64,000 bases of DNA, from the sequence record DRR723986_4151; one strand, given 5' to 3'. A program made the position numbers and the translations under genes. Each line of letters opens with the position of its first letter. Position 1 is the stretch's first letter. The notes beneath the pieces are model-generated. The model saw nothing but the letters and a program-made list of their open reading frames with translations, searched no databases and was not told the origin of the DNA. Shown piece after piece: positions 24,869 to 55,295 of this stretch.

Positions 24869-25675
24869 ATGAAGCTCTTAAAGCCTTTAATTATTATTGT
24901 TTGTGTCATTAATTTATCTTCTTGTATTCCACATAAAGACACCATTTATTTACAGAATAAGGAAAATTCGATGTATGATACTATACCCAATAACATATCT
25001 GAATTACAGAAGCCATATCGCGTACAAATAAATGATATTTTAAATATTAAAGTAAAAGCAGCTCGTCAGGAAACAGTACAAATTTTGAATCCATCAGGAG
25101 ATGCAAATTTGAATGCAGATAGTGCTGAACGTGCTTATTTTGATGGTTTTACTGTAGATATACATGGTAATATAAGAGTTCCTACCTTAGGTAAGATTAA
25201 TGTGCTTGGTTATACTACAGAAGAAATAGAGAAAGAAATAGAGCGTAAATTGTTAGAGACCCAGTTTAAAGAAAGTGCTAATATTTTTGTAACCGTCAAA
25301 TTAGCTGGACTAAGATATACTGCAAATGGCGAAGTAGGAAGGCCAGGAAGTAATGTTCTATTTACAGATAGGGTTAATATTTTTGAAGCCATTGCTAATG
25401 TTGGTGAAATACCTGTTACAGGAAATAAAAAGGATTTGCTAATTATAAGACAATATCCACAGGGTCAAAAAATTCATCATTTAGATTTAACAGATATCAA
25501 CGTAATGAAGTCTCCCTATTATTATATACAACCAAATGATATCATATACGTTAAACCTCTTAAACAAAAATCTATTGGAACAGGTGAAACAGCAGTATCT
25601 AGTTTAACAACGATTGCCACTATTTTGTCATTAATAACATCAACTGTTCTTATTTACACAAGAGTTAATCAATAA
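24869..25675 (+). CDS. wza: Polysaccharide export lipoprotein
   Basis: Lipobox LSSC, YRVQINDIL, GNIRVPTLG, GEVGRPG, YYIQPND; ATG 24869 preferred. Confidence 0.9.
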   Translation: MKLLKPLIIIVCVINLSSCIPHKDTIYLQNKENSMYDTIPNNISELQKPYRVQINDILNIKVKAARQETVQILNPSGDANLNADSAERAYFDGFTVDIHGNIRVPTLGKINVLGYTTEEIEKEIERKLLETQFKESANIFVTVKLAGLRYTANGEVGRPGSNVLFTDRVNIFEAIANVGEIPVTGNKKDLLIIRQYPQGQKIHHLDLTDINVMKSPYYYIQPNDIIYVKPLKQKSIGTGETAVSSLTTIATILSLITSTVLIYTRVNQ

Positions 25676-28149
25676 TGGATCAAAATTTCGTAGACATAGA
25701 TAATAAAGAAGTTCAATCGATTGGATTTGATTTCAAAGGCTTTTTATTCAAAGCATTAAATCTATGGAAATCTATTCTATTGTGCATTATTGTTGCTCTA
25801 GTAATAGCGTATTTAATAAATATTCGTAAACAAAATATATATAGATTAGATTCATTAATCACAGTAGAAAGTGATCAGAATCCTTTTTTTACTGCCAATA
25901 CAAGCATATCTTTTAATTGGGGAGGGGTTTCAGGTAAGGTAGGCAAAGTAATGACATCTATAAAAACTCGTTCTCACAATGAGTTGGTAATTGATAGTCT
26001 ACAGTATTTTATACAATATCTTGAAGAAGGTAAGTATAGGAAAATAGATATATATAGAGAATCTCCATTTAAATTTCAATTAAATACTAATAAACCACAA
26101 GTATTAAATTACCCGGTTAGAGTTATTTATAAAAACGATCAAGAATTTGAAATATTTACCAATTTTGAATCAACATCTAAAAATGCACAAAAATATGACG
26201 ATAAATCTTATGTAAATGTTTCAGTACCACAAGGAGAATTTCGTAAAACTATAAAGTTTGGTGAACCTTTTGAACTATCGTTTATGTCGGGTGTCATCCA
26301 CCTCAAGCCTAATAGAGCTTTTATTTCAGATGATCAATATTTTATAAAGTTTTTACGGTTTGATAATGTGGTTAGTGCTTATCAAAACAATATTAAAATT
26401 GAGACCTTTAATGCCTCTGCCTCGTCAGTATTAAAACTGTCATTATTAGGTAATAATAAAAATAAAATAGCCGACTTTCTTAACGCGACGACGTCTATAT
26501 TAAGTAGAACAGAACTTGAACGTAAAAATCTTTACGCAACGAATACTATAAAATTTATTGATAGTAGCTTAGGTGCTGTAGATAAGGACTTAAAGGCTGT
26601 TACAGATCGTATGAATACGTTTAGAAAGCAGAATAAAGTTTTTGATTTAGATGATGAAATGATTCAGTTGTCTGAAAAGTTAAAAGTTTTTGAAAAACAA
26701 AAGGAAGAGGCAAAATCAAAGCTTACTTATTTAAATACACTCGAAAACTATTTATTAACAAAAACAGATTATACCAAAATCGCAGCTCCTACATCAGTTG
26801 GGATTAATGAGATGAATATTCTTTCTAGTGTATCTAAAATAACAAACCTTTCTATTGAGCGTCAAAACTTAGAAAATTCTACGAAAGAAGGGTCAGTATT
26901 ACTTACCGAAATAGATAGTAGAATAGATGCTGAGAAAAATGTATTACTAGAAACGGCTAGAGCAACTAAGGAGACTATTAATTATCAATTAAATGCCATA
27001 AATAAAAATGCGGCTGTAATAGAGGCCAAGCTAAATGAACTGCCTGAAGATCAGCAAGAATATTTAAAAATACAGCGAGAGTTTGATATTAGCCAAGAAG
27101 CATATAATATTTACATGACAAAGAGAGGTGAAGCAGCCATCGTTAAGGCCGCAAATGTGTCTGATATTACAGTAATTGATGAAGCTAAAGATATTGGTAA
27201 TGCACCTGTAGGACCAAGGAAATCTCTCAATTATATGTTGGCATTAATTGCAGGGTTTTTTACACCGATGTTTTTAATTTTTATCATTTTTTTACTTGAT
27301 AATACAATTCATGGGTCTGACGAAGTTTTAAAACTGTCTAATATTCCTATCCTTGGCTTAATTGGTAAGTATAAATACAAGAATAATCTAGTGGTTTATG
27401 AAAAACCTAAATCTGCCGTAGCTGAATCTTTTAGAGCGATACGATCGAGTTTACAATTTTTGTTTAAACAGAATCCATCAACAACAAGAGCTAATACCTT
27501 AATGATCACTTCGTCGGTCAGTGGAGAAGGTAAAACATTTACATCCATAAATATTGCAACTGTATATGCACTATCAGATAAGAAAACCATTTTGGTTGGT
27601 TTAGATCTTAGAAAGCCTAAAATATTTGATGATTTTAATATAACAAATGAAAAAGGTGCTGTTAATTATTTAATAGGCGATAGTACTTTAGAAGAAATAA
27701 CTACTAATACTCATATTGAGAATTTAGATTTAATTACTTCAGGTCCAATACCACCAAATCCATCAGAACTATTGATGAGTAATAAACTTAAAGAGCTAAT
27801 TAGTACTCTAAAGGATAATTATGATATGATTATTTTAGACACTCCGCCTTTAGGATTAGTAACTGATGCGTTAGAACTAGTTCAATATGCAGATACGTCT
27901 ATATTTATGGTTAGACTTGATTACACTAAGAAAGGAATGTTACAGTTGGTCAATGCTAAGTATAGAACTGGAGAATTAAAAAATTTAAGCTTTGTACTTA
28001 ATTTTTATAGACATAAGAGCAATCACAATTATGGTTATGGCTACGGTTACGGTTATGGTTACGGCTATGGTGTATATGGTAATGCATACCACGAAAAGGA
28101 TGCCCAGTCGTTTTTAGGTCGTATAAAAAGCTTTTTTCGTAGATCTTAA
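25675..28149 (+). CDS. wzc: Polysaccharide co-polymerase / BY tyrosine kinase
   Basis: Two TMs; SSVSGEGKT, DLRKP, ILDTPP; C-terminal YGYGYGYGYGYGYG tyrosine cluster. Confidence 0.95.
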   Translation: MDQNFVDIDNKEVQSIGFDFKGFLFKALNLWKSILLCIIVALVIAYLINIRKQNIYRLDSLITVESDQNPFFTANTSISFNWGGVSGKVGKVMTSIKTRSHNELVIDSLQYFIQYLEEGKYRKIDIYRESPFKFQLNTNKPQVLNYPVRVIYKNDQEFEIFTNFESTSKNAQKYDDKSYVNVSVPQGEFRKTIKFGEPFELSFMSGVIHLKPNRAFISDDQYFIKFLRFDNVVSAYQNNIKIETFNASASSVLKLSLLGNNKNKIADFLNATTSILSRTELERKNLYATNTIKFIDSSLGAVDKDLKAVTDRMNTFRKQNKVFDLDDEMIQLSEKLKVFEKQKEEAKSKLTYLNTLENYLLTKTDYTKIAAPTSVGINEMNILSSVSKITNLSIERQNLENSTKEGSVLLTEIDSRIDAEKNVLLETARATKETINYQLNAINKNAAVIEAKLNELPEDQQEYLKIQREFDISQEAYNIYMTKRGEAAIVKAANVSDITVIDEAKDIGNAPVGPRKSLNYMLALIAGFFTPMFLIFIIFLLDNTIHGSDEVLKLSNIPILGLIGKYKYKNNLVVYEKPKSAVAESFRAIRSSLQFLFKQNPSTTRANTLMITSSVSGEGKTFTSINIATVYALSDKKTILVGLDLRKPKIFDDFNITNEKGAVNYLIGDSTLEEITTNTHIENLDLITSGPIPPNPSELLMSNKLKELISTLKDNYDMIILDTPPLGLVTDALELVQYADTSIFMVRLDYTKKGMLQLVNAKYRTGELKNLSFVLNFYRHKSNHNYGYGYGYGYGYGYGVYGNAYHEKDAQSFLGRIKSFFRRS
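28030..28080 (+). repeat. TAYGGY hexamer repeat encoding the Wzc Tyr-Gly cluster
   Basis: tatggttatggctacggttacggttatggttacggctatggt. Confidence 0.85.
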
Positions 28150-28164
28150 CTAAAATAAATACTA

Positions 28165-28755
28165 TTGATTTCTAAGGCACAATTAAGAACCAAACGAATA
28201 TTCGATTTTACTTTTGCCTTGTTTTTATTACCTTTTTTAATAATTCCCATTGTATTATTTATAATTGTTGCAACAATTGATACTCGTAAATTTGGGGTGT
28301 TTTCTCAGTTGCGTGTTGGTCAGCAAGCTGAGCTTTTTAAAATATATAAAATTCGTACACTGAGAGAAGAAGAGCATATCCTTGGTCATTTAGATAAGAG
28401 TGCAACTACAATTGGTAAGTTTTTTAGACGATCGAAGTTAGATGAATTGCCTCAATTATTCAATGTCCTTATTGGAGATATGAGTTTTGTAGGCCCACGA
28501 CCAGATGTTCAAGGTTTTGCAGATGAGTTAAAAGGGGATGATAGAAAAATATTAATTGTAAAACCAGGTATAACAGGACCTGCAACTTTAAAATATAAGG
28601 ATGAAGAACGTGTTTTAGAACGTCAAAAAGATCCAGACTACTACAATAGAACGATTATTTGGGTAGATAAAGTGAAAATCAATAAAAAGTATGTTGAGAA
28701 TTACAGTTTTTACTTAGATTTGAGCTTCATTTTAAAATCTACTTTAAACAAATGA
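28165..28755 (+). CDS. Small monotopic phosphoglycosyl transferase (PglC-like)
   Basis: KRIFD, KLDELPQLFNV, GDMSFVGPRP, KPGITG. Confidence 0.92.
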   Translation: MISKAQLRTKRIFDFTFALFLLPFLIIPIVLFIIVATIDTRKFGVFSQLRVGQQAELFKIYKIRTLREEEHILGHLDKSATTIGKFFRRSKLDELPQLFNVLIGDMSFVGPRPDVQGFADELKGDDRKILIVKPGITGPATLKYKDEERVLERQKDPDYYNRTIIWVDKVKINKKYVENYSFYLDLSFILKSTLNK

Positions 28756-30047
28756 CACATTCAGAAGACAAAATTGCGATCATAGGATTAGGTTATGTCG
28801 GATTGCCCCTTGCTGTAGAATTTGCAAAACAATTTTTTGTAGTTGGTTTTGACATTAATAAGCAGCGAATCAACGAGTTAAATTCCGGATTAGATAAAAC
28901 TTTAGAGGTTGATAATGATAATTTGAAATCTGTTTTAACGACAGATTTAAATTCGGAAAAAGGATTATTTATAACAGATGACCTAGACGCACTTCGAGTT
29001 GCAAATGTTTACATCATAACTGTGCCGACACCAACAGATGCTTTAAATAAGCCAGTGTTTACACCATTAATAAAGGCTAGTGAAACAGTTGGTAAGGCAA
29101 TGAGCAAAGGTGACATTGTTGTTTATGAATCAACAGTTTATCCTGGTGCTACAGAAGATATTTGTATTCCTGTTGTAGAAAATACGTCTGGTTTAAAATA
29201 CAATGTAGATTTTTATGCTGGTTATTCACCAGAACGAATAAATCCAGGTGACAAGAAACATACCGTTACTAAAATATTAAAAGTAACATCAGGTTCTACA
29301 CCTGAAGTTGCAGAAAAGGTTGATCAACTTTATAAAAAAGTTATTACAGCGGGTACTCATTTAGCACCTTCAATAAAAGTCGCTGAAGCCGCCAAAGTAA
29401 TTGAAAACTCTCAGAGAGATATAAATATTGCCTTTGTTAATGAGTTATCTAAAATTTTTAGATTGCTAGATATAGATACCAAGGCAGTCTTGGAAGCTGC
29501 GGGAACTAAATGGAATTTCTTAAAATTCACTCCAGGATTGGTTGGTGGTCATTGTATAGGTGTAGACCCTTATTATTTAGCACAGAAAGCCATTGAATCT
29601 GGTTATAATCCTGAAATCATCTTAGCTGGTCGAAAAATGAATGACAGTATGGGTAGTTATGTAGCTACGGAAACTGTGAAGATGATGATTAATAAAGGTG
29701 CTACAATTAAAGGATCTAAAGCATTGGTTTTAGGGATTACTTTTAAAGAAAATTGTCCAGATATTAGAAATTCAAGAGTTATAGATATTATCGAAGAATT
29801 AGAGTCGTATCATGTAAATGTAGATGTATATGATCCGTGGGCTTCAAAAGAGGAAGTTAAACATGAATATGGTTTTGACTTAATAACTGAATTTAATGAT
29901 TTGGCATCAGATTATGATTCTATAATTTTAGCAGTATCACACAAAGAATTCTTAAATCTCGAATTAAATAATTTAAAATCACAAACAGGTGTTATTTTTG
30001 ATGTAAAATCTTTACTTCCAAGTGATACCGTAGACGCACGATTATAA
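28752..30047 (+). CDS. UDP-N-acetylhexosamine 6-dehydrogenase (TviB/WbpO-like)
   Basis: GLGYVGLP, ESTVYPG, YSPERINPGD, GGHCIGVDP, FKENCPD. Confidence 0.92.
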   Translation: MTHSEDKIAIIGLGYVGLPLAVEFAKQFFVVGFDINKQRINELNSGLDKTLEVDNDNLKSVLTTDLNSEKGLFITDDLDALRVANVYIITVPTPTDALNKPVFTPLIKASETVGKAMSKGDIVVYESTVYPGATEDICIPVVENTSGLKYNVDFYAGYSPERINPGDKKHTVTKILKVTSGSTPEVAEKVDQLYKKVITAGTHLAPSIKVAEAAKVIENSQRDINIAFVNELSKIFRLLDIDTKAVLEAAGTKWNFLKFTPGLVGGHCIGVDPYYLAQKAIESGYNPEIILAGRKMNDSMGSYVATETVKMMINKGATIKGSKALVLGITFKENCPDIRNSRVIDIIEELESYHVNVDVYDPWASKEEVKHEYGFDLITEFNDLASDYDSIILAVSHKEFLNLELNNLKSQTGVIFDVKSLLPSDTVDARL

Positions 30048-31024
30048 TGTACTCAAATCAATACCATTCAAAAGATCTTTCAAAATTAAGTTTTTTAGTT
30101 ACTGGAGGAGGAGGCTTCATAGGCTCAAATATTGTTGAATATTTATTAAAATATAACGCAAAGAAAGTAAGAGTACTAGATAATTTCTCAAACGGTTATA
30201 GAGAAAATTTATCTGAGCTTGAAGATAATCCAGCTTTTGAATTGTTAGAGGGAGACATAAGAGATCTCGAAACTTGCAAAAAAGCTATGGAAGATATCGA
30301 TTATGTATCTCACCAAGCGGCATTAGGCTCAGTGCCTAGATCAATTAACGATCCGACTACAACTAATGATGTTAATATTTCTGGGTTTTTAAATATGATG
30401 ATTGCATTAAAGGATAGTCCAACTGTTAAACGTATGGTTTATGCAGCATCAAGTTCTACTTATGGTGATAGCAAGAACTTACCAAAAGTTGAAAATACTA
30501 TTGGTAAACCATTATCTCCTTATGCTGTGACAAAGTACGTGAATGAGTTGTACGCTGATGTATTTGGTACCACCTATGATACAGATGTTATTGGATTACG
30601 TTACTTCAATGTTTTTGGGCCAAAACAAAGTCCAAATGGAGCATATGCAGCTGTAATTCCTTTATTTATGCAAGCCTTAAAGGATAATGAGCCATCTAAA
30701 ATTAATGGAGATGGTGAGCAGACCAGAGATTTTACTTTTGTAGATAATGCCGTACAAGCTAATGTAAGAGGATTTTTCGCATCGAAAGAAGCAAAAAACG
30801 AAGTCTTTAATGTGGCTTGTGGTGAACGAATTTCTGTAAATTATCTATGGGAATCTCTAAGACTAGCTGCAAATTCTGAATTGAAAGCAATTTATGGTCC
30901 ACCAAGACAAGGTGATGTTAGAGATTCTTTAGCAGACATTTCTAAAGCAGAAAGGCTTTTAGGCTATAAACCTCAGTACACAGTGAGAGAAGGTCTTAAA
31001 ATAACATGGGATTACTTTAACTAA
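30047..31024 (+). CDS. UDP-GlcNAc(A) C4 epimerase (TviC/WbpP-like)
   Basis: TGGGGFIG, HQAALGSVPRSI, PLSPYAVTKYVNE, YAAVIP. Confidence 0.92.
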   Translation: MYSNQYHSKDLSKLSFLVTGGGGFIGSNIVEYLLKYNAKKVRVLDNFSNGYRENLSELEDNPAFELLEGDIRDLETCKKAMEDIDYVSHQAALGSVPRSINDPTTTNDVNISGFLNMMIALKDSPTVKRMVYAASSSTYGDSKNLPKVENTIGKPLSPYAVTKYVNELYADVFGTTYDTDVIGLRYFNVFGPKQSPNGAYAAVIPLFMQALKDNEPSKINGDGEQTRDFTFVDNAVQANVRGFFASKEAKNEVFNVACGERISVNYLWESLRLAANSELKAIYGPPRQGDVRDSLADISKAERLLGYKPQYTVREGLKITWDYFN

Positions 31025-31095
31025 CAATACTGTTAGATTTTTTTCATTTGAATACCTAATATTTGGTATATTGCATTTGACTAAATCTAACTAAA

Positions 31096-31962
31096 TTGAA
31101 TACCAATAATGAAGATAATTGGCTATATGTTATCTCTAGTAAGAGAAAACTTATAGACCTTAACTTCAAAGAAATATGGCAGTATAGAGACTTATTGTTT
31201 TTGTTTGTTAAACGAGATATTGTAACCTTATACAAACAAACTATACTTGGGCCTTTATGGTATTTAATTCAACCACTTTTTACTTCCGTAGTATTTACAT
31301 TAGTATTTAATAACTTAGGTGATATTAAAACAGGTGGTATTCCTCCTTTTTTATTCAACTTGGTCGGTATCACTGCATGGAATTACTTCAAGGACTGTTT
31401 AAACAATACATCAAATACTTTTACTAAAAATCAGAATATTTTTGGGAAAGTTTATTTTCCAAGAGTGATTCTACCAATGTCTGTGACAATTTCGAATCTC
31501 TTAAAATTTGGAATACAATTATTGATTTTTGTTGGGTTTTATATCTATTATAATGCATCGGGTTTTGATTTTGGTATCAATAACAACCTATTGCTGTTTC
31601 CGGTTTATGTAATTATGATGGGATTACTTGGCTTAGGGTTTGGTATGATCTTTTCATCGCTTACCACCAAGTATAGGGATTTATCTGTACTACTCACTTT
31701 TGCTGTGCAATTATTAATGTATTTATCAGCTGTCCCTTATCCGTTATCAGAAGCGAATGCTAAATTTCCAACTTTGGTTGCAAAGATTGTAGAGTATAAT
31801 CCTTTAACACAGATAATTGAAGGCTTTAGATATATGTTATTAAATACAGGATCTTTTGACTTAAATAAATTTGTTTATACTTTAATCTTGAGTATAGTTA
31901 TCTTTTTATTTGGGTTAATTATATTTAATAGAACCGAAAAACAGTTTGTAGATACCGTATAA
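31096..31962 (+). CDS. wzm: Polysaccharide ABC transporter permease
   Basis: YKQTILGPLW, KVYFPR, KYRD, NPLTQIIEGFR. Confidence 0.93.
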   Translation: MNTNNEDNWLYVISSKRKLIDLNFKEIWQYRDLLFLFVKRDIVTLYKQTILGPLWYLIQPLFTSVVFTLVFNNLGDIKTGGIPPFLFNLVGITAWNYFKDCLNNTSNTFTKNQNIFGKVYFPRVILPMSVTISNLLKFGIQLLIFVGFYIYYNASGFDFGINNNLLLFPVYVIMMGLLGLGFGMIFSSLTTKYRDLSVLLTFAVQLLMYLSAVPYPLSEANAKFPTLVAKIVEYNPLTQIIEGFRYMLLNTGSFDLNKFVYTLILSIVIFLFGLIIFNRTEKQFVDTV

Positions 31963-31963
31963 T

Positions 31964-33253: not shown

Positions 33254-33303
33254 TTACAAATTCTTTTGAGATGAAAATTAATCAAATTTAATCATTATAA
33301 TAA

Positions 33304-35788: not shown

Positions 35789-35798
35789 TAATTTAAAA

Positions 35799-36818: not shown

Positions 36819-36833
36819 AACTCCCTATTAAAT

Positions 36834-43066: not shown

Positions 43067-43081
43067 ATAAATTTAATTTTT

Positions 43082-45890: not shown

Positions 45891-45928
45891 GCAAGCTTTA
45901 GGTTTATCAAGTTTTGTATTTTTAACAC

Positions 45929-46993: not shown

Positions 46994-46996
46994 GTA

Positions 46997-48328: not shown

Positions 48329-49401
48329 TGAAAATAGTACAAGTCATAGATCAGTTAAATGTTGGTGGAGCAGAACGCGTCTTAATTGACTTGTCTAATT
48401 TATTATATGAAAACCGTAATAATGTAACTGTACTTTGTTTGTTAGATGAAACAGTTTTAGATGGGCATTTAAATGATGATATTCCAGTTATTTACCTTAA
48501 AAGGTTAAATAAATACAACCCATTATATTTAATAAGACTTTACAGAATACTTAAACAATTTGATATTGTTCATATTCATTTACGTCAGGTTTTAAGATAT
48601 GTTTCGTTATTATTTTATATCACCAAAATTGATAGAAAAAAGGTTTTTATTTTTCATGATCACTACGGTAGAATAAATGAAGATAGGAGAGTTTCAACTA
48701 CTTTAAAAAAGGCTATTAAGCATTGTAAATGCTACGTTGGCGTGAGCGAACAGTTAAAAGTCTGGGCAGATTCAAAGAAATTGAATCAAAAAACCTTTAA
48801 ATTAAGTAACATAGTAAGAGTGAGCTCAGTAAAAATAAAAACTGACTTATCTTCTAGCAATGTAAAATTGGTATCTGTTGGGAATTTTAGACCACAGAAG
48901 AATTATGAATTTTTAATTGAACTCATAAAATTTTTACCAGAGAACTATAGGTTTACTATTTACGGTCAAATTATTGATAAGGAGTATTACCAAAAAATTC
49001 TTGCACTAATAGAAAAGTATAATTGTACAGATAAGGTTTCAATAAATACAAATTGTAATTCTATTCAGTCTAAATTGTCTCAATATCATTTAGGAGTTCA
49101 TTGTGCAGCTTCAGAAACAGGTCCGCTTGTTGCTATTGAGTATATGAGTCATCATTTACCATTCATTGCATATAATACAGGTGAAGTAGCTTTACAGGTA
49201 AAAGAGTCATTCCCTATATTTATTCAAGAGAATTTTAATGTTACTACTTGGGTTAATAGTATTGAAAATATACTTTTAAATAGAGATAAGTATGTAAATC
49301 AATTAAATGATTTTTATACCAAAAATTATTCTGAAGAGACTTATTTAAACCATTGTTTATCAATTTATAATACCTTATTAAATACGAAAAACGATCATTA
49401 G
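48328..49401 (+). CDS. GT4 glycosyltransferase
   Basis: GGAERV, VGNFRPQKN, SETGPLVAIEYM. Confidence 0.9.
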   Translation: MKIVQVIDQLNVGGAERVLIDLSNLLYENRNNVTVLCLLDETVLDGHLNDDIPVIYLKRLNKYNPLYLIRLYRILKQFDIVHIHLRQVLRYVSLLFYITKIDRKKVFIFHDHYGRINEDRRVSTTLKKAIKHCKCYVGVSEQLKVWADSKKLNQKTFKLSNIVRVSSVKIKTDLSSSNVKLVSVGNFRPQKNYEFLIELIKFLPENYRFTIYGQIIDKEYYQKILALIEKYNCTDKVSINTNCNSIQSKLSQYHLGVHCAASETGPLVAIEYMSHHLPFIAYNTGEVALQVKESFPIFIQENFNVTTWVNSIENILLNRDKYVNQLNDFYTKNYSEETYLNHCLSIYNTLLNTKNDH

Positions 49402-50532
49402 GTGAAATTAACCATAATATCACATACAGAACATTATAAAAAATCTGATAGCACTATTGTAGGTTGGGGACCAACAATCACTGAAATTAGCCATCTCGCA
49501 GAGATTTTTGACGAAATCTATCATATAGCTATGTTTTATAATGAGCAAGCACCAGATAGCTCATTGCCTTATACTAAAGATAATATAACATTGGTACCAA
49601 TAAAGCCAACAGGTGGTCATAGTATTAAGGCTAAATTGAATGTGTTGTTCTCCGCTCCAAGAGTTATAAGAACAGTTAATAAAACGCTAACAAAAACAGA
49701 CTGTTTTCAATTACGAGCTCCTACAGGGATTGGTGTGTTTTTAATTCCTTATCTCATATTATTTTCAAAAAAGAAAGGGTGGTTTAAGTATGCAGGCAAC
49801 TGGAAAGAAAATCCAGCACCATTAGGTTATGCAATTCAAAGGTTCTTTTTAAAACGTCAAAAAAGAAAGGTAACAATTAATGGTAAATGGGAAAATCAAA
49901 AAGGACATTGCCTTAGTTTTGAAAATCCCTGCCTGACTGAAAAGGATATAATAGAAGGAAAAGAATTTGTTGCAACAAAAACAAATAAGGATGTTTTAAA
50001 CTTCTGTTATGTTGGTAGGTTAGAGAAGCAAAAAGGTGTGGAAAGGATTATTAATGCTTTTAATCAACTACCACATGATATGTTAGCTAAGGTTGGTGAA
50101 ATTCATTTAGTTGGTGATGGTGCTGATGTAGATTTTTTCAAACAAATAAGCAAAAAGAAAGGTGTAAACTTTAAATTTCATGGTTTTCTGCCAACACATA
50201 AAGTGTTCGAAATCTATAAGGAATCTCATTTTTTTCTGATGCCATCAACGGCTTCAGAAGGTTTTCCAAAGGTTATTGCTGAAGCAATGAATTATGGATG
50301 TGTCCCAATAGTATCATCGATATCTTCAATTGGGCAATATGTAAAAAATGGTGAAAATGGATTTTTAATAGATCCGGTTACTGAAGATAATGTAATCAAC
50401 GTCATTTCTGAAGCAATTGATTTACCTCAAAATAAATTTGAAGAGTTTCAAATCAAGAATCAAAATATTGTTGTGAAATTTACGTACGAATATTACCTCG
50501 AGAGAATAAAGAAACTTATTTCTGAAGAATAA
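49402..50532 (+). CDS. GT4 glycosyltransferase
   Basis: VGRLEKQKG, SEGFPKVIAEAM. Confidence 0.9.
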   Translation: MKLTIISHTEHYKKSDSTIVGWGPTITEISHLAEIFDEIYHIAMFYNEQAPDSSLPYTKDNITLVPIKPTGGHSIKAKLNVLFSAPRVIRTVNKTLTKTDCFQLRAPTGIGVFLIPYLILFSKKKGWFKYAGNWKENPAPLGYAIQRFFLKRQKRKVTINGKWENQKGHCLSFENPCLTEKDIIEGKEFVATKTNKDVLNFCYVGRLEKQKGVERIINAFNQLPHDMLAKVGEIHLVGDGADVDFFKQISKKKGVNFKFHGFLPTHKVFEIYKESHFFLMPSTASEGFPKVIAEAMNYGCVPIVSSISSIGQYVKNGENGFLIDPVTEDNVINVISEAIDLPQNKFEEFQIKNQNIVVKFTYEYYLERIKKLISEE

Positions 50533-50679
50533 GATTTAGAATAAAAGCTTAATTTTTAAATTCATAAATATGAGATGGTGCTATTCACTTAATTAAAAAG
50601 CACGTTAGTCTATGAAATTAGGCTAAGTTTCCTAATTTTATTTATATTTAGCTCGCTATTAAACAATTACATTTACTCA

Positions 50680-51498
50680 TTGAATAGGAGAAAACTTTCC
50701 TGGATTTTAAGAAGACACTCTTTTTTGTATTATGCAAGATTCAGGTTACTTTCCTATAACTCTACAAAAGATGAGGTAGATAAAGAAACGTATAATTTTT
50801 ATAATCCAAAATCTGAAATTCCGAAGATTTATTATGAGGTTAATGAAAGGATTTTTGAAGGTGTTGGTCCTCAAACTGATTTAGAAAAAGCAAAGCATAT
50901 TTCTAGTTGGTTGAGAAAGCACATTAAAGGCGGCTCTGGCTTAAGTTTGCCATCTGACACCGCTTTAGCGGCAATGTTAGATGGTAAAGGTGGCGTATGT
51001 AGCGATATGTCGCAGGTATATAATAATTTTTGCGTTATAAATGATTTATTAGTAAAGGAATGGGGAATTACTGTAATTCCGTTTGATAAAAACTATGGCG
51101 GACATGCTGCCAATGAAGTATTCTCAAAAGAATTAAATAAATGGATACTAATTGATGTATCAAGGTGTATTACCTTTTATACCTATAGTATTGATAGGCC
51201 ACTTTCTGCACTTGAAGTTTTCTATATGGATGAAGGGTTAAAGTATGATGATTTTTATGAGAATATTGATGATGATACACAAATTCAGAATTATTATTTT
51301 AACAAAAATGCTACACTTTTTTTAATATCAAGGTATAAGAATAAGACTTACGACAAATACTTAAAGTTTTTTCCTTCTAAAATACCTATCTTTTTAGTTC
51401 ATTTTTACATTTTTCTTACAGGAAAAAGTTACAAATATAAATTTCCACTACATGATTATAGAAAGATGTTTAAATCAAGAAAATCTGCATTATCTTAG
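50680..51498 (+). CDS. Transglutaminase-like (Cys-His-Asp) domain protein
   Basis: GGVCSD, GHAANEV, KWILID; TTG start; -7-like TATATTTAG upstream. Confidence 0.8.
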   Translation: MNRRKLSWILRRHSFLYYARFRLLSYNSTKDEVDKETYNFYNPKSEIPKIYYEVNERIFEGVGPQTDLEKAKHISSWLRKHIKGGSGLSLPSDTALAAMLDGKGGVCSDMSQVYNNFCVINDLLVKEWGITVIPFDKNYGGHAANEVFSKELNKWILIDVSRCITFYTYSIDRPLSALEVFYMDEGLKYDDFYENIDDDTQIQNYYFNKNATLFLISRYKNKTYDKYLKFFPSKIPIFLVHFYIFLTGKSYKYKFPLHDYRKMFKSRKSALS

Positions 51499-51527
51499 AA
51501 CCAGAAAAGAATAAATATCATTTCTAA

Positions 51528-52877
51528 TTGAATTTTGATAGCAAATATATTTTTTGGGTAATAATCCATATTATCATTGGATTTTTAATCTTCACATTTA
51601 AACCTATGGCTAAGGTTTATTTTAATGCGGCTGTGATATATTTTATTGCCTATGTCATTGTTGCTCCAAAATCTATGAAAACATTGGCCATAATGAACGC
51701 ATGTGCTTATTTTGTCGGGGCAGAAGTTCTATTTAGAATGACAAAAGGTGGTATTGCTTATGAAGCCTCTAAATATTTGGTAATTCTTTTCGTACTCATG
51801 GGTATGTTTTTCAAAGGTGTCAAAGGACAAGGATATCCATATTTTTTATATTTGATTTTACTGGTTCCTGCAATTTTTACAGCATCGATTAATTTAAGAT
51901 TTGATGCCAACTTTAGGACTAATTTAGCCTTTGTATTAAGTGGACCCGTTTGCTTGGGTTTAGCTTCATTGTTTTTTTATGACCGGTCAGTTAAGAATAA
52001 AGACCTTATACAGATGCTTAATTACTTGTCATTACCAATTATAACTATGACATTTTACTTGTTTTTTTACAATCCAAGTGTAAGAGATACCATAAAAGAT
52101 ACAGCATCTAACTTCAGTACTTCAGGTGGTTTTGGACCTAACCAAGTAGCAACAATTTTAGGTTTAGGTATGTTTGCATTTACGGTTAGATTACTTTTAA
52201 AATCCCCAAGTATCGGATTGAAAATATTTAATATCATCATATTAATTCTTATATCATATCGCGCGGTTGTAACATTTAGTCGTGGTGGTGTTTTGGCCGC
52301 AATAATAACCATATTGGCTTTTGTAGTTATCGTTTATGCAAGAGCTAGACCAGCTTTAAAAAACAAACTTATTGGTTCATCAGCGTTATTTATAACGGCA
52401 TTAATTATTACATGGGTAATAAGTTCTACTACAACAATGGGACTCATAGATAAGCGTTATGCAAATCAAGATTCATTAGGAAGGGAAAAAGCTGATTTAA
52501 CCACGGGTAGAGTTGAACTGCTTATGAATGAGCTGGATGGTTTTATAGAAAATCCTTTTCTAGGCATAGGTGCGAGTAATACTAAATATAGACGAGATAA
52601 TGGGGAAATGATTGTATCTCACAATGAAATTAGTAGAACACTTTCAGAACATGGTTTTTTAGGTATAATTGTTTTATTGATACTTATTTTTACACCATTG
52701 TCATTTAGGTCTAGAAACAAAAAGAATATATATTTTTACGCATTTATGGCGTTTTGGTTTCTAACAATTAATCACTCAGCAATGCGTTTAGCAGGACCTG
52801 CATTTTTCTACGCCTTAGCGCTAATTAATATTAAAAATGAAAAACGTCCTTTACATAGGAAACGCCTTATCAAATAG
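51528..52877 (+). CDS. O-antigen ligase/Wzy-family membrane protein
   Basis: Multi-TM; GPNQ, TFSRGG, TGR, NPFLGIG, SHNE..R.LSEHG. Confidence 0.88.
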   Translation: MNFDSKYIFWVIIHIIIGFLIFTFKPMAKVYFNAAVIYFIAYVIVAPKSMKTLAIMNACAYFVGAEVLFRMTKGGIAYEASKYLVILFVLMGMFFKGVKGQGYPYFLYLILLVPAIFTASINLRFDANFRTNLAFVLSGPVCLGLASLFFYDRSVKNKDLIQMLNYLSLPIITMTFYLFFYNPSVRDTIKDTASNFSTSGGFGPNQVATILGLGMFAFTVRLLLKSPSIGLKIFNIIILILISYRAVVTFSRGGVLAAIITILAFVVIVYARARPALKNKLIGSSALFITALIITWVISSTTTMGLIDKRYANQDSLGREKADLTTGRVELLMNELDGFIENPFLGIGASNTKYRRDNGEMIVSHNEISRTLSEHGFLGIIVLLILIFTPLSFRSRNKKNIYFYAFMAFWFLTINHSAMRLAGPAFFYALALINIKNEKRPLHRKRLIK

Positions 52878-53844
52878 TGGTAAAACAGTTACGACTATTG
52901 AGACATTAAGTGCACACTTAAAGGAATTCTGTGCTATTAAAATAGCCTCAAATAAAACTAATAAAATTCTCAGGCTTTATGACATGATTAAATTGGTTTT
53001 AACCAATAAATCAACAACAGATTTTGTATTAATTGATACCTATAGTACAACAAACTTTTATTTTACATTAATTATAAGTCAATTGTGTAGGTTTCTTAAA
53101 CTAAGATATATACCTATTTTACATGGTGGGAATCTTGAGAATAGACTCATAAACTTTCCAAAATTAAGTCAATTAATTTTTAAGAATGCCTACCAACTTG
53201 TGGCACCATCAAGGTTCTTAGAATCAATTTTCACTTCTTATGGTTATACAAATAGTACTCATATTCCTAATTCAATTGATATAGATCATTATGAGTTTTT
53301 GAGTCGAAAGGTTGATATCGTAAAATTATTATGGGTAAGATCATTTTCATCAATTTATAATCCTGAATTAGCTATTAAAGTACTTAATAAATTAAATAAA
53401 GAGGGTGTAAAAGCAGAGCTTACTATGATTGGTCCAGAAGTAGATGGATCATTAGTTAGAACAAAAGAACGAGCTAAGCAATATAACTTAGATGTTAATT
53501 TCACAGGTAAAATGCCAAAAACCCGGTGGATTGAGATTTCAAGAGACTGCAATATATTCATTAACACTACTAATTTTGATAACACTCCTGTAAGTGTTAT
53601 TGAAGCCATGGCATTAGGACTGCCTGTGGTGTCTACAAATGCAGGTGGATTACCTTATTTAATTACGGACAATATTGATGGTCTATTAGTTCCTGTAGAC
53701 AATACCAATGCAATGGTAAATGCGATAAAAATTTTGTCTAAAAGCGATGAGTTAAGACAAAAACTAATAGATAATGGAAGACAAAAAGCAGAATCTTTTG
53801 ATTGGAATACAGTTAAATCTCAATGGAAGTCGCTTTTATCCTAA
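52837..53844 (+). CDS. GT4 glycosyltransferase
   Basis: LHGG, IPNSID, DNTPVSVIEAMALGLPVVSTNAGG. Confidence 0.9.
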   Translation: MKNVLYIGNALSNSGKTVTTIETLSAHLKEFCAIKIASNKTNKILRLYDMIKLVLTNKSTTDFVLIDTYSTTNFYFTLIISQLCRFLKLRYIPILHGGNLENRLINFPKLSQLIFKNAYQLVAPSRFLESIFTSYGYTNSTHIPNSIDIDHYEFLSRKVDIVKLLWVRSFSSIYNPELAIKVLNKLNKEGVKAELTMIGPEVDGSLVRTKERAKQYNLDVNFTGKMPKTRWIEISRDCNIFINTTNFDNTPVSVIEAMALGLPVVSTNAGGLPYLITDNIDGLLVPVDNTNAMVNAIKILSKSDELRQKLIDNGRQKAESFDWNTVKSQWKSLLS

Positions 53845-53900
53845 ATTAAATTTTATAATCATTTAGACTTTTTATCTTTACCATAAAGCTTATCTCAATA

Positions 53901-55295
53901 ATGAAGCACAAAAAAGGGATACATTTTGAAGTTTCTGAACGTAAGATTCTTCTAAGAATCATGGATTTGGTCATGGTTCTACTAGGAATTTATCTCTTAG
54001 GATTATTTTTTGACTTCGATTATGTCGTTATTAATTCTGAAAACATTGTACCAGTTGTATTACTCGCTGCTTATATCACCATATTTGGAACTATTTTTGA
54101 GCTTTACGATTTACAAAGAGCCAGTAAAGTTGATACTACATTTAGTAATATTGTAATTACTACATCTACAGTTGTATTATTTTATCTTTTCACACCAGTT
54201 CTATCGCCATATTTACCAGAAGAACGTATGCAAATTGTGTATTTGTATCTCGTTATAATTGTTTCAATATTAATTTGGAGATTGTTTTATATAAACCTTA
54301 TTGAATCACCTAGATTCTATAAACGTGTTTTGCTGGTTGGTGAAATTTCAAATATTGAAGGACTAGTTAAAGCTCTAGACGCTTCAGATCCTAATTATAA
54401 AATCGTAGGATTTATTAATAGTGAGGCGACAACTACAGAATCAATAAAATTCAAAGGGCTTAAAGAATTTGCTGCGAAAGACTTTCTAGAAATCATTCAA
54501 AGAGAAAAAATTTCAGAGGTCTTGATGGCGAGTTTTAATACAGAAGCTATAATAGCAGAAGTCTATCATGATTTAATATTATTATTAGAACGAGGATTCA
54601 AAATTAGGGAGTATACTCAAGTTTATGAGGAATTGCTCCACAAGGTGCCTATTCAATTTGTTGGTAAAGATTTTTATAAATATTTTCCATTTAGTAGAAG
54701 TAACGAAACCAAATTATACATATTCTTTCATCGCGCTTTTGATATTGTTTTTTCTACATTTGGATTGCTTAGTGGACTTTTACTAGTCCCATTTATTCTT
54801 ATAGGAAATTTAATTGGTAATAAAGGCCCGTTATTTTATACCCAAGAACGTGTTGGTAGAAATAGTAAACCATTTAGAATAATAAAGCTGAGAACAATGG
54901 TAGTAAATGCGGAAGAGCATGGCGTAAAATGGGCTGAGAAAGGGGATAAAAGAATTACGGCATTTGGCATGTTTTTAAGACGAAGTCGATTAGACGAAAT
55001 ACCACAATTCCTTAATGTACTTAAGGGCGAAATGAGTATTATAGGGCCAAGGCCAGAGCGTCCATTTTTTGTCAATGAACTATCACGAATAATTCCGTTT
55101 TACGAAACACGACATATTATAAAACCAGGACTAACAGGTTGGGCTCAAGTCAATACAAGGTATGGTTCTTCTATAGATGATAGTCTTACTAAGCTGCAAT
55201 ACGATTTATACTATATAAAACACAGAAGTATATTTTTAGATTTTAGCATTACCATAAAGACCTTAAGCACCATATTATACTACAGAGGTCAGTAA
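53901..55295 (+). CDS. Large polyprenyl-phosphate glycosylphosphotransferase (WcaJ/WbaP-like)
   Basis: Four N-terminal TMs; RLDEIPQ, MSIIGPRPERP, KPGLTGWAQV, KLQYDLYYI. Confidence 0.93.
   Translation: MKHKKGIHFEVSERKILLRIMDLVMVLLGIYLLGLFFDFDYVVINSENIVPVVLLAAYITIFGTIFELYDLQRASKVDTTFSNIVITTSTVVLFYLFTPVLSPYLPEERMQIVYLYLVIIVSILIWRLFYINLIESPRFYKRVLLVGEISNIEGLVKALDASDPNYKIVGFINSEATTTESIKFKGLKEFAAKDFLEIIQREKISEVLMASFNTEAIIAEVYHDLILLLERGFKIREYTQVYEELLHKVPIQFVGKDFYKYFPFSRSNETKLYIFFHRAFDIVFSTFGLLSGLLLVPFILIGNLIGNKGPLFYTQERVGRNSKPFRIIKLRTMVVNAEEHGVKWAEKGDKRITAFGMFLRRSRLDEIPQFLNVLKGEMSIIGPRPERPFFVNELSRIIPFYETRHIIKPGLTGWAQVNTRYGSSIDDSLTKLQYDLYYIKHRSIFLDFSITIKTLSTILYYRGQ

Follow-up and report, generated by a model that had tools for sequence, protein, structure and literature searches.

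Organization of the locus

The window, the whole 64,000-nucleotide stretch of DNA that we analyzed, derives from a Winogradskyella-like marine flavobacterium and carries a chromosomal cluster of ~30 kb. Its 27 ORFs (196–824 residues) are all on the + strand and span positions 24842–55295. The original prediction described 25 co-oriented genes at 24869–55295; the orientation and end coordinate stand, whereas the gene count and the start had to be corrected. The GC content is 29.9% within the locus and 34.4% in its flanks, and type IX secretion genes lie in its vicinity. The cluster comprises three parts: a conserved 5′ block (g1 to the ATPase domain of g7) encoding Wza, Wzc, a small initiating transferase, a UDP-HexNAc dehydrogenase and 4-epimerase, Wzm and the Wzt ATPase domain; a variable block, which starts within wzt at the carbohydrate-binding domain and extends across g8–g13; and a conserved 3′ block (g14–g27). 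The features are as follows:

22902–24764, − strand: ABC-F gene, locus border on the 5′ side
24842–25675, + strand: g1, Wza (OPX); Poly_export PF02563, E = 6.7e-15
25675–28149, + strand: g2, Wzc-type polysaccharide co-polymerase with tyrosine autokinase; GNVR and AAA_31, TIGR01007
28165–28755, + strand: g3, small (196 residues) polyprenyl-phosphate sugar-phosphate transferase; Bac_transf, E = 3.7e-44
28752–30047, + strand: g4, UDP-HexNAc 6-dehydrogenase (TviB/WbpO-like); TIGR03026, 397 bits, above cut-off
30047–31024, + strand: g5, UDP-HexNAc(A) 4-epimerase (WbpP/TviC/WbgU-like); WbpP 1sb8, E = 4.4e-102
31096–31962, + strand: g6, Wzm ABC-2 permease; ABC2_membrane, E = 8.8e-17
31964–33253, + strand: g7, Wzt ATPase with C-terminal carbohydrate-binding domain; ABC_tran, E = 3.4e-23, and Wzt_C, E = 4.1e-13
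33304–34074, + strand: g8, GT34/Nucleotid_trans-like glycosyltransferase; PF05637, 35.6 bits, and PF03407, 29.3 bits
34071–34961, + strand: g9, GH130-fold β-propeller protein (variable block); AlphaFold and Foldseek
34952–35788, + strand: g10, polysaccharide pyruvyltransferase; PS_pyruv_trans, E = 8.1e-11
35799–36818, + strand: g11, GT4 glycosyltransferase; Glyco_trans_1_4, E = 1e-9
36834–37586, + strand: g12, SAM-dependent methyltransferase; Methyltransf_23, E = 2.9e-11
37589–39418, + strand: g13, full-length AsnB-type glutamine amidotransferase; GATase_7 and Asn_synthase, TIGR01536
39421–40608, + strand: g14, GT4 glycosyltransferase; Glycos_transf_1, E = 7e-36
40624–42012, + strand: g15, AsnB-like PP-loop enzyme without glutaminase domain; Asn_synthase, E = 6.9e-7
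42002–43066, + strand: g16, GT4 glycosyltransferase; Glycos_transf_1, E = 3.7e-29
43076–43930, + strand: g17, Sulfotransfer_1-family sulfotransferase (conserved block); PF00685
43927–44715, + strand: g18, Sulfotransfer_2-family sulfotransferase (accessory insertion); PF03567, 29.8 bits, cut-off 22
44712–45890, + strand: g19, GT4 glycosyltransferase; Glycos_transf_1, E = 4.5e-33
45929–46993, + strand: g20, single-domain GT47 (exostosin)-like glycosyltransferase, 354 residues (conserved block); Exostosin_GT47
46997–48328, + strand: g21, GT2 glycosyltransferase with a ~150-residue N-terminal extension; Glycos_transf_2, residues 153–273
48328–49401, + strand: g22, GT4 glycosyltransferase; family profile
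49402–50532, + strand: g23, GT4 glycosyltransferase (conserved block); family profile
50680–51498, + strand: g24, cytoplasmic transglutaminase-core (Cys-His-Asp) protein; Transglut_core, 25.8 bits
51528–52877, + strand: g25, polytopic Wzy_C/WaaL-type ligase (or polymerase); Wzy_C, E = 3.7e-18
52837–53844, + strand: g26, GT4 glycosyltransferase; family profile
53901–55295, + strand: g27, full-length WbaP/WcaJ-type polyprenyl-phosphate hexose-1-phosphate transferase; Bac_transf, E = 2.2e-60
55303–56478, − strand: Lnb-like gene, locus border on the 3′ side

Pfam/NCBIfam profiles, profile-versus-PDB searches and AlphaFold models of two proteins (g9 and g20) compared using Foldseek assigned a family to every one of the 27 ORFs, with recourse to the fold for g9 and to an extended ORF for g17. 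These searches recovered all of the families named in the original prediction, and the gene content bears out its general reading of the locus as a surface-glycan biosynthesis system. Its gene list lacked Wzc, Wzm, Wzt with the Wzt_C domain, the two Bac_transf enzymes and the Wzy_C/WaaL protein, wza being named outside that list. The locus encodes ~11 single-domain glycosyltransferases, including seven of family GT4 (g11, g14, g16, g19, g22, g23 and g26) and a single GT2 enzyme (g21). Hydrophobic-segment prediction identified g25 as the sole polytopic protein besides the ABC exporter, and membrane segments are absent from all decorating enzymes. No characterized counterpart of this cluster was found.

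Export genes and the strain-variable block

Wza (g1) is 73–91% identical in four of four Winogradskyella loci. The Wzc-type protein g2 scores 162 bits against TIGR01007 (cut-off 108) and has an orthologue at 69–93% identity in each of five relatives, which each encode three more paralogues at ~29%. Identities among relatives amount to 70–88% for the small initiating transferase g3, predicted to hold one hydrophobic segment, to 79–94% for the permease g6 and, in all five relatives, to 78–91% for the second initiating enzyme g27 (TIGR03025, 333 bits, cut-off 296). The closest solved structure to g4 is Cap5O (E = 4.7e-55), and the best solved match of g5 is WbpP (1sb8, over residues 16–321), followed by WbgU. 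The TviB/TviC-like pair that had been proposed for these two genes stands at the family level (TIGR03026; WbpP), but both proteins score under the equivalog cut-offs (g4, 549 bits against 592 for TviB NF011729; g5, 330 bits against 760 for TviC), which weighs against the reading favored below. g25 is predicted to contain 10 hydrophobic segments, and its sole solved relative detected by profile is WaaL (7tpg), a weak match (E = 6e-4).

The Wzt C-terminal domain (residues 283–403) matches Wzt_C with 50 bits (cut-off 30.4). The Wzt ATPase domain is 86–95% identical between the window and the related genomes G002–G005 (86–98% across all comparisons). The identity of the C-terminal domain is 75% between the window and G002, which has g8–g10-like genes too, 20–24% between the window and G003–G005, whose variable blocks differ, and 95% between G004 and G005, which have one common variable block. 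At the level of sequence, the binding domain changes together with the variable block. The portion of the literature considered here describes the Wzt C-terminal domain of this pathway class as binding a chain-end cap and thereby licensing export (PMC9445017).

Within the variable block, g8 has homologues only in locus L002 (94% identity) and in L006/G002 (67%). g9 yielded no Pfam match at E ≤ 10, PF04041 included, and its profile retrieved from the PDB only matches with E values of 0.4–0.5, all five to GH130-type entries. Its AlphaFold model (pLDDT 95.8) is a five-bladed β-propeller closest to GH130: the best 40 Foldseek matches are GH130 enzymes along with two GH130-fold mannosyltransferases/synthases, Leishmania MPT-2 and Uhgb_MS (E = 2.8e-10 to 1.6e-6 and TM-score 0.55–0.67 for the phosphorylases, MPT-2 and Uhgb_MS). 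The prediction of a GH130-like protein is upheld at the level of the fold. A search for relatives of g9 recovered 272 representative clusters, and in other proteins the g9-type domain is fused with GT34-like, GT4 or methyltransferase domains, as well as with PqqD and a GT2 domain (the latter a weak match, E = 0.006, below cut-off). g9 is probably a glycosyl (mannosyl-type) transferase or a phosphorylase.

The methyltransferase g12 is a candidate chain-end capping enzyme, a role suggested by its position after wzt; methyl-, sulfo- and pyruvyltransferase genes, which lie in or close to the variable block, are candidates for the chain-end terminator. g13, which scores 351 bits against TIGR01536 (cut-off 267), is by analogy a candidate WbpS-like enzyme for uronate amidation. 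Since it resides within the strain-variable block, amidation would be an allele-specific trait.

All four contiguous Winogradskyella genomes retain the entire frame along with its Lnb-like neighbor downstream. Of 56 species-level loci from Flavobacteriaceae, most contain homologues of g15, g16, g17, g19, g21 and g23 at 30–70% identity; homologues of g20, g25 and g26, in the same identity range, occur in fewer of them. In four of five genomes from other genera, Wzt lies 12–20 kb upstream of the g15 homologue on the same strand; the exception is Aequorivita sinensis, where 77 kb separate the core from the best Wzt match. Linkage between Wzt and the 3′ block thereby holds in eight of the nine genomes examined, and all loci examined read unbroken on one strand. 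These comparisons indicate that the locus represents a single allele within a cluster type spread across Flavobacteriaceae and not a one-off; it is thus less rare than the original prediction implied.

We favor, with a probability of roughly 60%, a reading in which the locus makes an ABC-transporter-dependent, lipid-linked acidic heteroglycan that would contain HexNAc–uronate or uronamide and be decorated with sulfate, methyl and pyruvate. ABC export is argued for by the Wzm/Wzt pair with its Wzt_C domain and by the swapping of that domain with the variable block while the ATPase domain stays constant. No Wzx-type flippase was detected by family profiles among the 27 ORFs, nor among the ORFs scanned from loci L007, L012, L014 and L042, the G004 block and two G002 genes. 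The frame kept within Winogradskyella, the linkage of Wzt in the other genera and the recurrence of 3′ block genes in most of the 56 loci point the same way, and the proximity of g5 to WbpP and the two AsnB domains of g13 agree with the proposed composition. Against this reading, a kinase-bearing Wzc and a Wzy_C protein usually partner Wzx/Wzy pathways, g25 resembles WaaL weakly and could be a polymerase, ~11 single-domain glycosyltransferases are many for an ABC-type polymer, Wzt is distant from the core in A. sinensis, and the two conserved initiating transferases are not explained by one pathway.

Two glycans could instead be made from one locus. In that case g3–g13 would produce the ABC-exported one, and the other would be started by g27, built by g14–g26 with g25 acting as Wzy, and exported through Wza/Wzc with the help of a flippase encoded elsewhere. 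Such an arrangement would account for conserved initiating transferases at both ends of the locus, for the presence of the usual Wzy-pathway set (a PCP-2a-type Wzc, an OPX protein and a Wzy_C protein) and for the 3′ block being apart from Wzt in A. sinensis. We nevertheless deem it unlikely in view of the linkage in eight of nine genomes, the unbroken one-strand loci and the lack of Wzx both in the locus and in those related loci and blocks that were scanned.

Another alternative is protein O-glycosylation. In some S-layer glycan systems, a WbaP-like initiator works alongside Wzm/Wzt and a Wzy_C transferase, a scheme matched here by g27, Wzm/Wzt with its binding domain, the methyltransferase and g25. 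The latter would then be a Wzy_C-type O-oligosaccharyltransferase moving an ABC-exported, capped glycan onto surface or S-layer proteins rather than onto lipid A–core; the proximity of type IX secretion genes and the conservation of the 3′ block across genera, unlike typical O-antigen loci, are compatible with this idea. We consider protein O-glycosylation quite improbable, as the window shows no obvious gene for an acceptor protein or an S-layer, Wza/Wzc would be unnecessary, and the one solved structure related to g25 is that of a lipid A–core ligase.

Sulfotransferases, the exostosin-like protein and the 3′ block

For the favored ABC-exported heteroglycan, sulfate would be added by g17 and g18, which belong to two different sulfotransferase families, as predicted, and whose PAPS-binding motifs are both kept throughout the aligned homologues. 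For g17, every homologue that reaches this region carries GSARSGTSW, and Arg132, Asn133, Pro134 and Ser140 are unchanged. In g18, RKxAGTS (Arg40, Lys41, Ala43, Gly44, Thr45, Ser46) and RxPxxRxxS (Arg113, Pro115, Arg118, Ser121) are unchanged in 10 of 10 sequences. We take these to be the 5′-phosphosulfate and 3′-phosphate binding motifs of PAPS-dependent sulfotransferases. g18 occurs in 12 of the 56 loci and is missing from G002–G005.

The g17 ORF called from TTG had no Pfam match, and the match to PF00685 (25.1 bits, cut-off 22) was obtained only with an upstream extension (43067–43930, that is 75 bases before the first ATG/GTG/TTG, at 43142). The PAPS loop is encoded at 43115–43141, 5′ of that codon, and the likely start is therefore CTG at 43082 or ATT at 43076. 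The coding sequence upstream of the first ATG/GTG/TTG is conserved, and position 43082 is occupied by CTG here and in G002, by TTG in G003–G005 and by ATG in distant homologues. Because no ATG/GTG/TTG precedes the loop, g17 is possibly poorly expressed or inactive, which counts against the favored reading.

As anticipated, the window lacks PAPS-synthesis genes, none of these families being detected among the 27 locus ORFs and 30 flanking ORFs scanned. APS kinase is present in all five related genomes, with a cysQ-x-cysC-cysD-cysN operon in W. algicola; it also matches 11 of 14 control genomes, so that its presence in relatives discriminates little. From the conserved motifs and the APS kinase of the relatives, we infer that the glycan would be sulfated. 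The part of the literature considered here also proposes sulfated, ABC-exported capsule clusters in marine bacteria (PMC11641403).

g20 matches Exostosin_GT47 with 35.8 bits (cut-off 33.4) over model positions 214–289 of 293, corresponding to the C-terminal third only; the same model gives 39.6 bits for the L007 homologue and 40.1 bits for that of L012. All seven profile matches in the PDB are to EXT2, EXT1 or EXTL3. With the AlphaFold model (pLDDT 89.5), the 12 Foldseek matches listed from ranks 1–14 are all EXTL3, EXT1 or EXT2 (E = 7e-9 to 7e-6, TM-score 0.47–0.58, 12–14% identity), followed by GT4 enzymes. The assignment to an exostosin-like glycosyltransferase thus holds at the fold level, as a GT-B protein closest to solved GT47 domains. 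g20 shares with animal EXT1, EXT2 and EXTL3 the GT-B fold and the C-terminal donor-binding motif but differs from them by lacking a membrane anchor, a stem and the GT64 half, Pfam detecting no second family in g20.

This resemblance, together with the HexNAc–uronate precursor pair and the two sulfotransferases, might suggest a glycosaminoglycan-like polymer in which HexNAc and uronate alternate, synthesized by an exostosin-type polymerase and sulfated afterwards, in line with the glycosaminoglycan-like product put forward originally. We regard such a polymer as very improbable: g20 is one 354-residue domain of low similarity to exostosins, no Pfam/NCBIfam match to a glycosaminoglycan synthase family (heparosan, chondroitin or hyaluronan type) was found in the 27 proteins, and matches to the TviE model are generic GT4 C-terminal ones, far under cut-off. 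Ten further glycosyltransferases accompany g20, and with ~11 single-domain enzymes an alternating disaccharide backbone is not indicated. GT47 members also act in plant cell-wall synthesis, so that a glycosaminoglycan product does not follow from the fold. The HexNAc–uronate part of the original glycan reading is supported, in that g4/g5 with the AsnB-type g13 fit a GalNAcA-amide scheme, and the glycosaminoglycan part is not.

Elsewhere in the 3′ block, g14 is 24–51% identical in related loci. The two predicted Asn-synthetase-like enzymes correspond to g13, with both domains, and g15, without the glutaminase domain. g15 aligns with g13 residues 176–336 and keeps the PP-loop SGGLDSR unchanged in 23 of 23 sequences; sequence searches found no solved relative and no characterized counterpart of it. 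In g24, which has no hydrophobic segment, Cys107, His142 and Asp159 are unchanged in 11 of 11 sequences.

Proposed pathway and comparison with known systems

In the pathway that we propose for the ABC-exported heteroglycan, the glycan would be assembled on the cytoplasmic side of the inner membrane while attached to a polyprenyl-phosphate carrier. UDP-GlcNAcA/UDP-GalNAcA would come from g4/g5, and g13, like WbpS in its proposed role, would turn uronate into uronamide. Cytoplasmic decoration would add sulfate from PAPS (g17 and g18), methyl (g12) and a pyruvate ketal (g10), and g15 (PP-loop) and g24 (Cys-His-Asp) would probably form or modify an amide or acyl group borne by the conserved part. 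The variable block would generate a strain-specific distal part or cap, recognized by the matching Wzt domain before export via Wzm/Wzt. g25 would join the exported glycan to lipid A–core or another acceptor, and Wza/Wzc may move the glycan through the outer membrane in capsular form.

A bolder joint reading, which we put forward tentatively and consider doubtful as a whole, is that of a family-wide, vertically kept sulfated-glycan pathway in marine Flavobacteriaceae with a new export cap and an undescribed amide-linked substituent. The Wzt domain would read a terminus formed by a pyruvate ketal, a sulfate or a sugar added by the GH130-fold protein, rather than one of the known caps (methyl, phosphate or Kdo), and the single-domain GT47, the glutaminase-less PP-loop amidoligase and the Cys-His-Asp transferase would build the conserved part and its amide-linked substituent.

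The comparisons that follow refer to the portions of the cited papers considered here. ABC-dependent O-polysaccharide systems with a cap-recognizing Wzt, namely E. coli O9a and Aquifex aeolicus WzmWzt (PMC9445017, PMC3482155), resemble the locus in having Wzm, a Wzt with a C-terminal binding domain, lipid-linked cytoplasmic assembly (predicted for our locus), a methyltransferase gene adjoining the transporter and a WaaL-type protein (putative in our locus), and in lacking Wzx. The locus differs by an OPX protein and a kinase-bearing Wzc beside the transporter, two Bac_transf initiators instead of WecA, many single-domain glycosyltransferases instead of few multi-domain polymerases, and sulfo-, pyruvyl- and amidotransferases. 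Pseudomonas aeruginosa WbpO/WbpP/WbpS are described as yielding UDP-GalNAcA and its amide (PMC6025236); g4 belongs to the same dehydrogenase family, g5 is closest to WbpP and g13 is likewise a two-domain AsnB-type enzyme, although it lies in a strain-variable block.

Sulfated capsule clusters have been proposed for Vibrio sp. KMM 8419 (PMC11641403) and Cobetia marina KMM 1449, marine bacteria that share with our locus ABC-type export and sulfotransferase genes within a polysaccharide locus. They belong to another phylum, with no common gene order known, and the Vibrio locus includes cysNDC, unlike the window. The Vibrio authors did not find similar loci in other genomes, according to the portion considered (PMC11641403), whereas the cluster described here is widespread in Flavobacteriaceae. 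The Synechocystis synechan cluster xss also encodes two sulfotransferases of distinct subfamilies, a co-polymerase, an OPX protein and about eight glycosyltransferases, but is Wzx/Wzy-dependent, (PMC8205485), whereas here an ABC exporter is encoded and Wzx is missing. The part of that paper considered here states that sulfotransferase genes were not found in other bacterial extracellular-polysaccharide clusters (PMC8205485).

Few routes to sulfated bacterial polysaccharides are genetically defined, and the present cluster type is widespread yet unstudied: its conserved sulfotransferase is encoded by the majority of the 56 retrieved species-level genomes of Flavobacteriaceae, and the extra sulfo-, methyl-, acyl- and pyruvyltransferases differ between strains. 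Flavobacteriaceae are prominent degraders of sulfated algal glycans, and a sulfated coat of their own would therefore bear on surface charge, on recognition by phages and grazers, and on marine sulfur and carbon cycling. The enzymes of the locus could serve microbial production of sulfated glycans, and the joint swap of the Wzt domain and the variable block offers a directly testable handle on cargo reading by ABC exporters.

Gene content and flanks of the locus

The locus spans positions 24842–55295 of the window and comprises 27 open reading frames (g1–g27, numbered 5′ to 3′) of 196–824 aa, all on the + strand and bordered on both sides by genes of opposite orientation. Families were assigned using Pfam and NCBIfam scans, and every family named in the original prediction is present. 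The co-oriented locus that it described also stands, with 27 genes rather than 25, and its description captured the biosynthetic families but left out the export and initiation genes. Its observation is thus confirmed and its interpretation partly supported.

Table. Pfam and NCBIfam assignments of the locus ORFs (+ strand) and flanking genes
22902–24764, upstream flank, divergent orientation: ABC-F ATPase
g1: Wza-like OPX
g2: Wzc tyrosine-kinase co-polymerase
g3: 196-aa Bac_transf initiating transferase
g4: TviB/WbpO-like dehydrogenase (TviB model, 549 bits, slightly below the cut-off of 592)
g5: WbpP/TviC-like epimerase (nearest solved structure, P. aeruginosa WbpP, E 4.4e-102)
g6: Wzm
g7: Wzt bearing a Wzt_C domain
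g8: GT34/Nucleotid_trans-like
g9: no Pfam match
g10: pyruvyltransferase
g11, g14, g16, g19, g22, g23, g26: GT4
g12: methyltransferase
g13: full two-domain AsnB
g15: AsnB-like, without glutaminase domain
g17: no Pfam match for the ORF as first called
g18: Sulfotransfer_2
g20: Exostosin_GT47
g21: GT2 with an N-terminal extension
g24: transglutaminase-core
g25: Wzy_C
g27: full-length WbaP/WcaJ-type Bac_transf
55303–56478, downstream flank, divergent orientation: Lnb-like membrane protein, followed by a PorV-like protein

The GC content of the locus is 29.9%, versus 34.4% in its flanks. We assigned the window to Bacteroidota because its GC content is low and it carries T9SS-type genes (for PorV and a Por_Secre_tail protease). 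The T9SS-type genes flank the region; one encodes an S8 protease whose C-terminal domain is a type IX secretion sorting domain (2804–4420) and the other a PorV-like outer-membrane protein (56482–57558). A separate gene group at 7148–11721 encodes a PAP2 phosphatase, a double-LAB_N (lipid A biosynthesis N-terminal) protein, a GT2 enzyme, an NAD-dependent epimerase/dehydratase and a 540-aa protein without a Pfam match (7704–9326, − strand), and resembles a sugar-modification module for lipid A or a lipid carrier.

Conserved frame, Wzt domain swap and predicted pathway

The entire frame, from wza to the gene of the large initiating transferase, is kept in all four contiguously assembled Winogradskyella genomes, as is the Lnb-like downstream neighbor. 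The common order is wza–wzc–g3–g4–g5–wzm–wzt, followed by a variable block of 5–12 genes, into which g8–g13 of the window fall, and then by g15–g16–g17–g19–g20–(acetyltransferase)–g21–g22–g23–g24–g25–g26–g27; g18 is an insertion missing from all four genomes. The W. marincola variable block encodes acetyl-, methyl-, sulfo- and acyl-transferases along with GT2 enzymes, and a family scan found no flippase in it.

The Wzt ATPase domain of the window is 86–95% identical to those of the four genomes. The C-terminal binding domain shares 75% identity with that of the closest genome, G002, which has g8–g10-like genes in common with the window, and 20–24% identity with those of the three genomes carrying different variable blocks. 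The Wzt C-terminal domains of two of the genomes (G004 and G005), which have a variable block in common, are 95% identical. The variable region therefore begins inside wzt, and the binding domain moves with the variable genes. A published account of ABC-transporter-dependent pathways describes the Wzt C-terminal domain as binding the chain-end cap, which halts elongation and licenses export (PMC9445017). The domain swap fits a strain-specific terminus that would be provided by the variable block, with one transporter probably serving the whole locus. Flank-versus-center identity was also considered as a sign of diversifying selection and discarded, as the Lnb-like neighbor is just 83% identical to its G002 counterpart and the identity of g1–g7 may merely mean that these genes are conserved.

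Judged from sequence, the locus is predicted to specify an ABC-transporter-dependent surface glycan. It combines a conserved core of sulfotransferase, GT47-like, PP-loop and transglutaminase-like proteins with what appears to be a swappable cap-plus-binding-domain module, and it belongs to a cluster type widespread in marine Flavobacteriaceae. No Wzx flippase was detected among the 27 ORFs in the Pfam and NCBIfam scans. Synthesis of a polyprenyl-phosphate-linked heteroglycan would be started by g3 and/or g27, and up to 11 glycosyltransferases would build the chain from precursors including UDP-GlcNAcA/GalNAcA supplied by g4 and g5. The glycan would be decorated in the cytoplasm with amide (g13, perhaps g15), sulfate (g17 and g18), methyl (g12) and pyruvate (g10) groups, capped and exported via Wzm/Wzt, after which g25 would ligate it and/or Wza/Wzc would convey it onward. 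Membrane segments are absent from all of the decorating enzymes, which should therefore act in the cytoplasm, the site of PAPS, SAM, PEP and ATP/glutamine.

Set against a single ABC pathway are (i) the kinase-bearing Wzc and the Wzy_C protein, which are typical of Wzy pathways, (ii) the two conserved initiators, for which it offers no explanation, (iii) the many single-domain glycosyltransferases, atypical of ABC-type polymers, and (iv) the lack of Wzt linkage in one of the nine genomes examined. Because of these features we retain two other readings: the production of two glycans by one locus, which we consider unlikely, and a protein glycosylation system, which we regard as more doubtful still.

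Glycosyltransferases, amidation and sulfation

A profile of 24 g20 homologues matched only EXT2, EXT1 or EXTL3 in the PDB (7/7 matches, E 4.7e-5 to 5e-4). In a Foldseek search with its AlphaFold model (pLDDT 89.5), the 12 rows listed within ranks 1–14 are all exostosins (E 7e-9 to 7e-6; TM-score 0.47–0.58, 12–14% identity over these rows), and GT4 enzymes come next. On these profile and model comparisons, g20 is a putative bacterial GT47-like enzyme whose 354 aa form a single domain, with no GT64 half. At E ≤ 1e-20, 41 of the 301 genomes sampled from the family encode a homologue. The GT47 fold of g20 is the sole feature pointing to the glycosaminoglycan-like product originally proposed, and we hold such a polymer to be very improbable.

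The proposed GH130/GT91-like nature of g9 holds by fold but not by sequence, which does not match PF04041. Its AlphaFold model is a β-propeller (pLDDT 95.8), for which Foldseek ranks 1–40 comprise GH130 mannoside phosphorylases/hydrolases, the Leishmania GDP-mannose mannosyltransferase MPT-2 and the mannoside synthase Uhgb_MS. The g9 family profile returned only non-significant matches in the PDB (E 0.4–0.5). An exhaustive phmmer search yielded 272 representative clusters. Fusion partners in some of these are GT34-like, GT4 or methyltransferase domains, and in one case a weakly matching GT2 domain (E 0.006, below cut-off). The fusion of GT34-like and g9-like domains parallels the g8–g9 adjacency in the window. 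In P0193, a 539-aa protein from another organism, a GT34-like domain is joined to a g9-like GH130-fold domain, suggesting that g8 and g9 act together.

The combination of g4, g5 and the two-domain AsnB g13 matches the WbpO/WbpP/WbpS scheme leading to GalNAcA and its amide (PMC6025236). The g15 protein aligns to the synthetase half of g13, and its PP-loop motif SGGLDSR is invariant (23/23 sequences); its family profile retrieved nothing from the PDB at E ≤ 0.01. Residues Cys107, His142 and Asp159 of g24 are kept in 11/11 homologues. The g25 protein has 10 hydrophobic segments, and the sole match of its family profile is the WaaL ligase 7tpg (E 6e-4).

The g17 frame is open for 75 bases 5′ of its first ATG/GTG/TTG codon (43142), and this stretch encodes NKHIVVAGSARSGTSW, the sulfotransferase phosphosulfate-binding loop; the extended protein passes the Sulfotransfer_1 model (25.1 bits, cut-off 22). 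A homologue search returned 437 proteins at E ≤ 0.001, the best of which are mostly 278–290 aa long and come from Winogradskyella, Aequorivita, Salinimicrobium, Oceanihabitans, Rasiella, Mesonia and others. They begin with M-x-x-[FY]-N-K-H, and a CTG codon of the window (43082) aligns exactly with their ATG. The start position is TTG in three Winogradskyella genomes and again CTG in G002, in which the loop is kept upstream and the protein is just 58% identical. Between 43064 and 43144, no ATG, GTG or TTG precedes the PAPS-binding loop, and an ATT (43076) lies two codons 5′ of the CTG. We read g17 as using a putative non-canonical start (CTG 43082 or ATT 43076) and not as a decaying gene; its expression may be lowered or absent. 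Read-through from g16, which shares its frame with g17 in the window with one TAA between them, was ruled out, since their frames differ in G002.

Both PAPS motifs of g18 are kept in 10/10 homologues. All five related genomes encode APS kinase, but so do 11 of the 14 control genomes. In W. algicola, cysQ, a gene for a 142-aa protein of no assigned family, cysC, cysD and cysN form an operon in this order (L060, G003:C10:362606–366055). In two Winogradskyella genomes, ~14 kb separate an APS kinase gene from one encoding a paralogue of the large initiating transferase (28–35% identity; G003:C10:350047–350856; G004:C17:355581–356831 and 369628–370077), and PAPS genes may therefore adjoin a second polysaccharide locus.

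Related loci and occurrence in nature

As g18 alone recovered no relative from the genome contigs, the g17 family alignment replaced it as the query against a set in which each species is represented by a single genome. The scan returned 56 related loci, nearly all from Flavobacteriaceae, including 10 from Winogradskyella, nine of which are the closest (58–61%). When the 27 window proteins were compared with these loci using tblastn (at least 60% query cover, E ≤ 1e-10), most full-length loci matched g15, g16, g17, g19, g21 and g23 and a smaller number matched g20, g25 or g26, each at ~30–70% identity; g18 was detected in 12 of the 56 loci, g24 in 13 and g8–g10 in only two. Pfam scans identified the same scaffold in W. 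algicola, Oceanihabitans sediminis, Mesonia phycicola and Salinimicrobium sediminis, with scattered Sulfotransfer_1/_3/_4, methyltransferase, MBOAT, hexapeptide acetyltransferase, pyruvyltransferase and GT2/GT92-like genes. Among five genomes of other genera, four have their best Wzt homologue 12–20 kb upstream of the g15 homologue on the same strand, and 77 kb separate the two in Aequorivita sinensis. Salinimicrobium sediminis harbors two Wzt copies upstream of the conserved block, with 5 kb between them (G309:C8:84452–85669 and 89926–91146; 56% and 54% identity to g7).

We found no publication on this cluster type in Flavobacteria; subscription journals fell outside our coverage, so an O-antigen structure from Winogradskyella or a relative could be published. 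Among the nearest published systems are the Wzx/Wzy-dependent synechan system with two sulfotransferases (PMC8205485), a proposed ABC-type sulfated capsule cluster containing cysNDC in Vibrio sp. KMM 8419 (PMC11641403), and those of Cobetia marina KMM 1449 and Pontiella.

Nearly identical copies of the segment 40624–48328 are present in 14 public runs that each contain 50% or more of its sampled words and come mostly from marine and estuary metagenomes. In all, 19 rows contain some part of the segment and cover 13 coded studies. One DNA run (X1) shows a depth drop and contig breaks at 42.9–44.0 kb (g17–g18), where the loose ends are adapter sequence and thus uninformative. Three estuary metatranscriptome runs contain scattered 151–275-nt pieces of the locus, nearly all at least 99% identical, in 13–15 of 30 bins, a weak hint of transcription, with DNA carry-over possible.

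Homologues of the conserved block were also present on contigs binned outside Bacteroidota, namely L052 and L053 (‘uncultured Alteromonas’) and L049 (‘Micrarchaeota’). L053 encodes homologues of g15–g21 and g23 (42–54% identity), and the GC content of L052 and L053 is 41%, versus 30–37% in flavobacterial loci. Either these contigs were binned wrongly or the cluster type has spread outside the family. Finally, each of five Winogradskyella genomes (G001–G005) encodes three extra Wzc paralogues (~29% identity) in addition to the orthologue of this locus, implying several polysaccharide export systems per genome.
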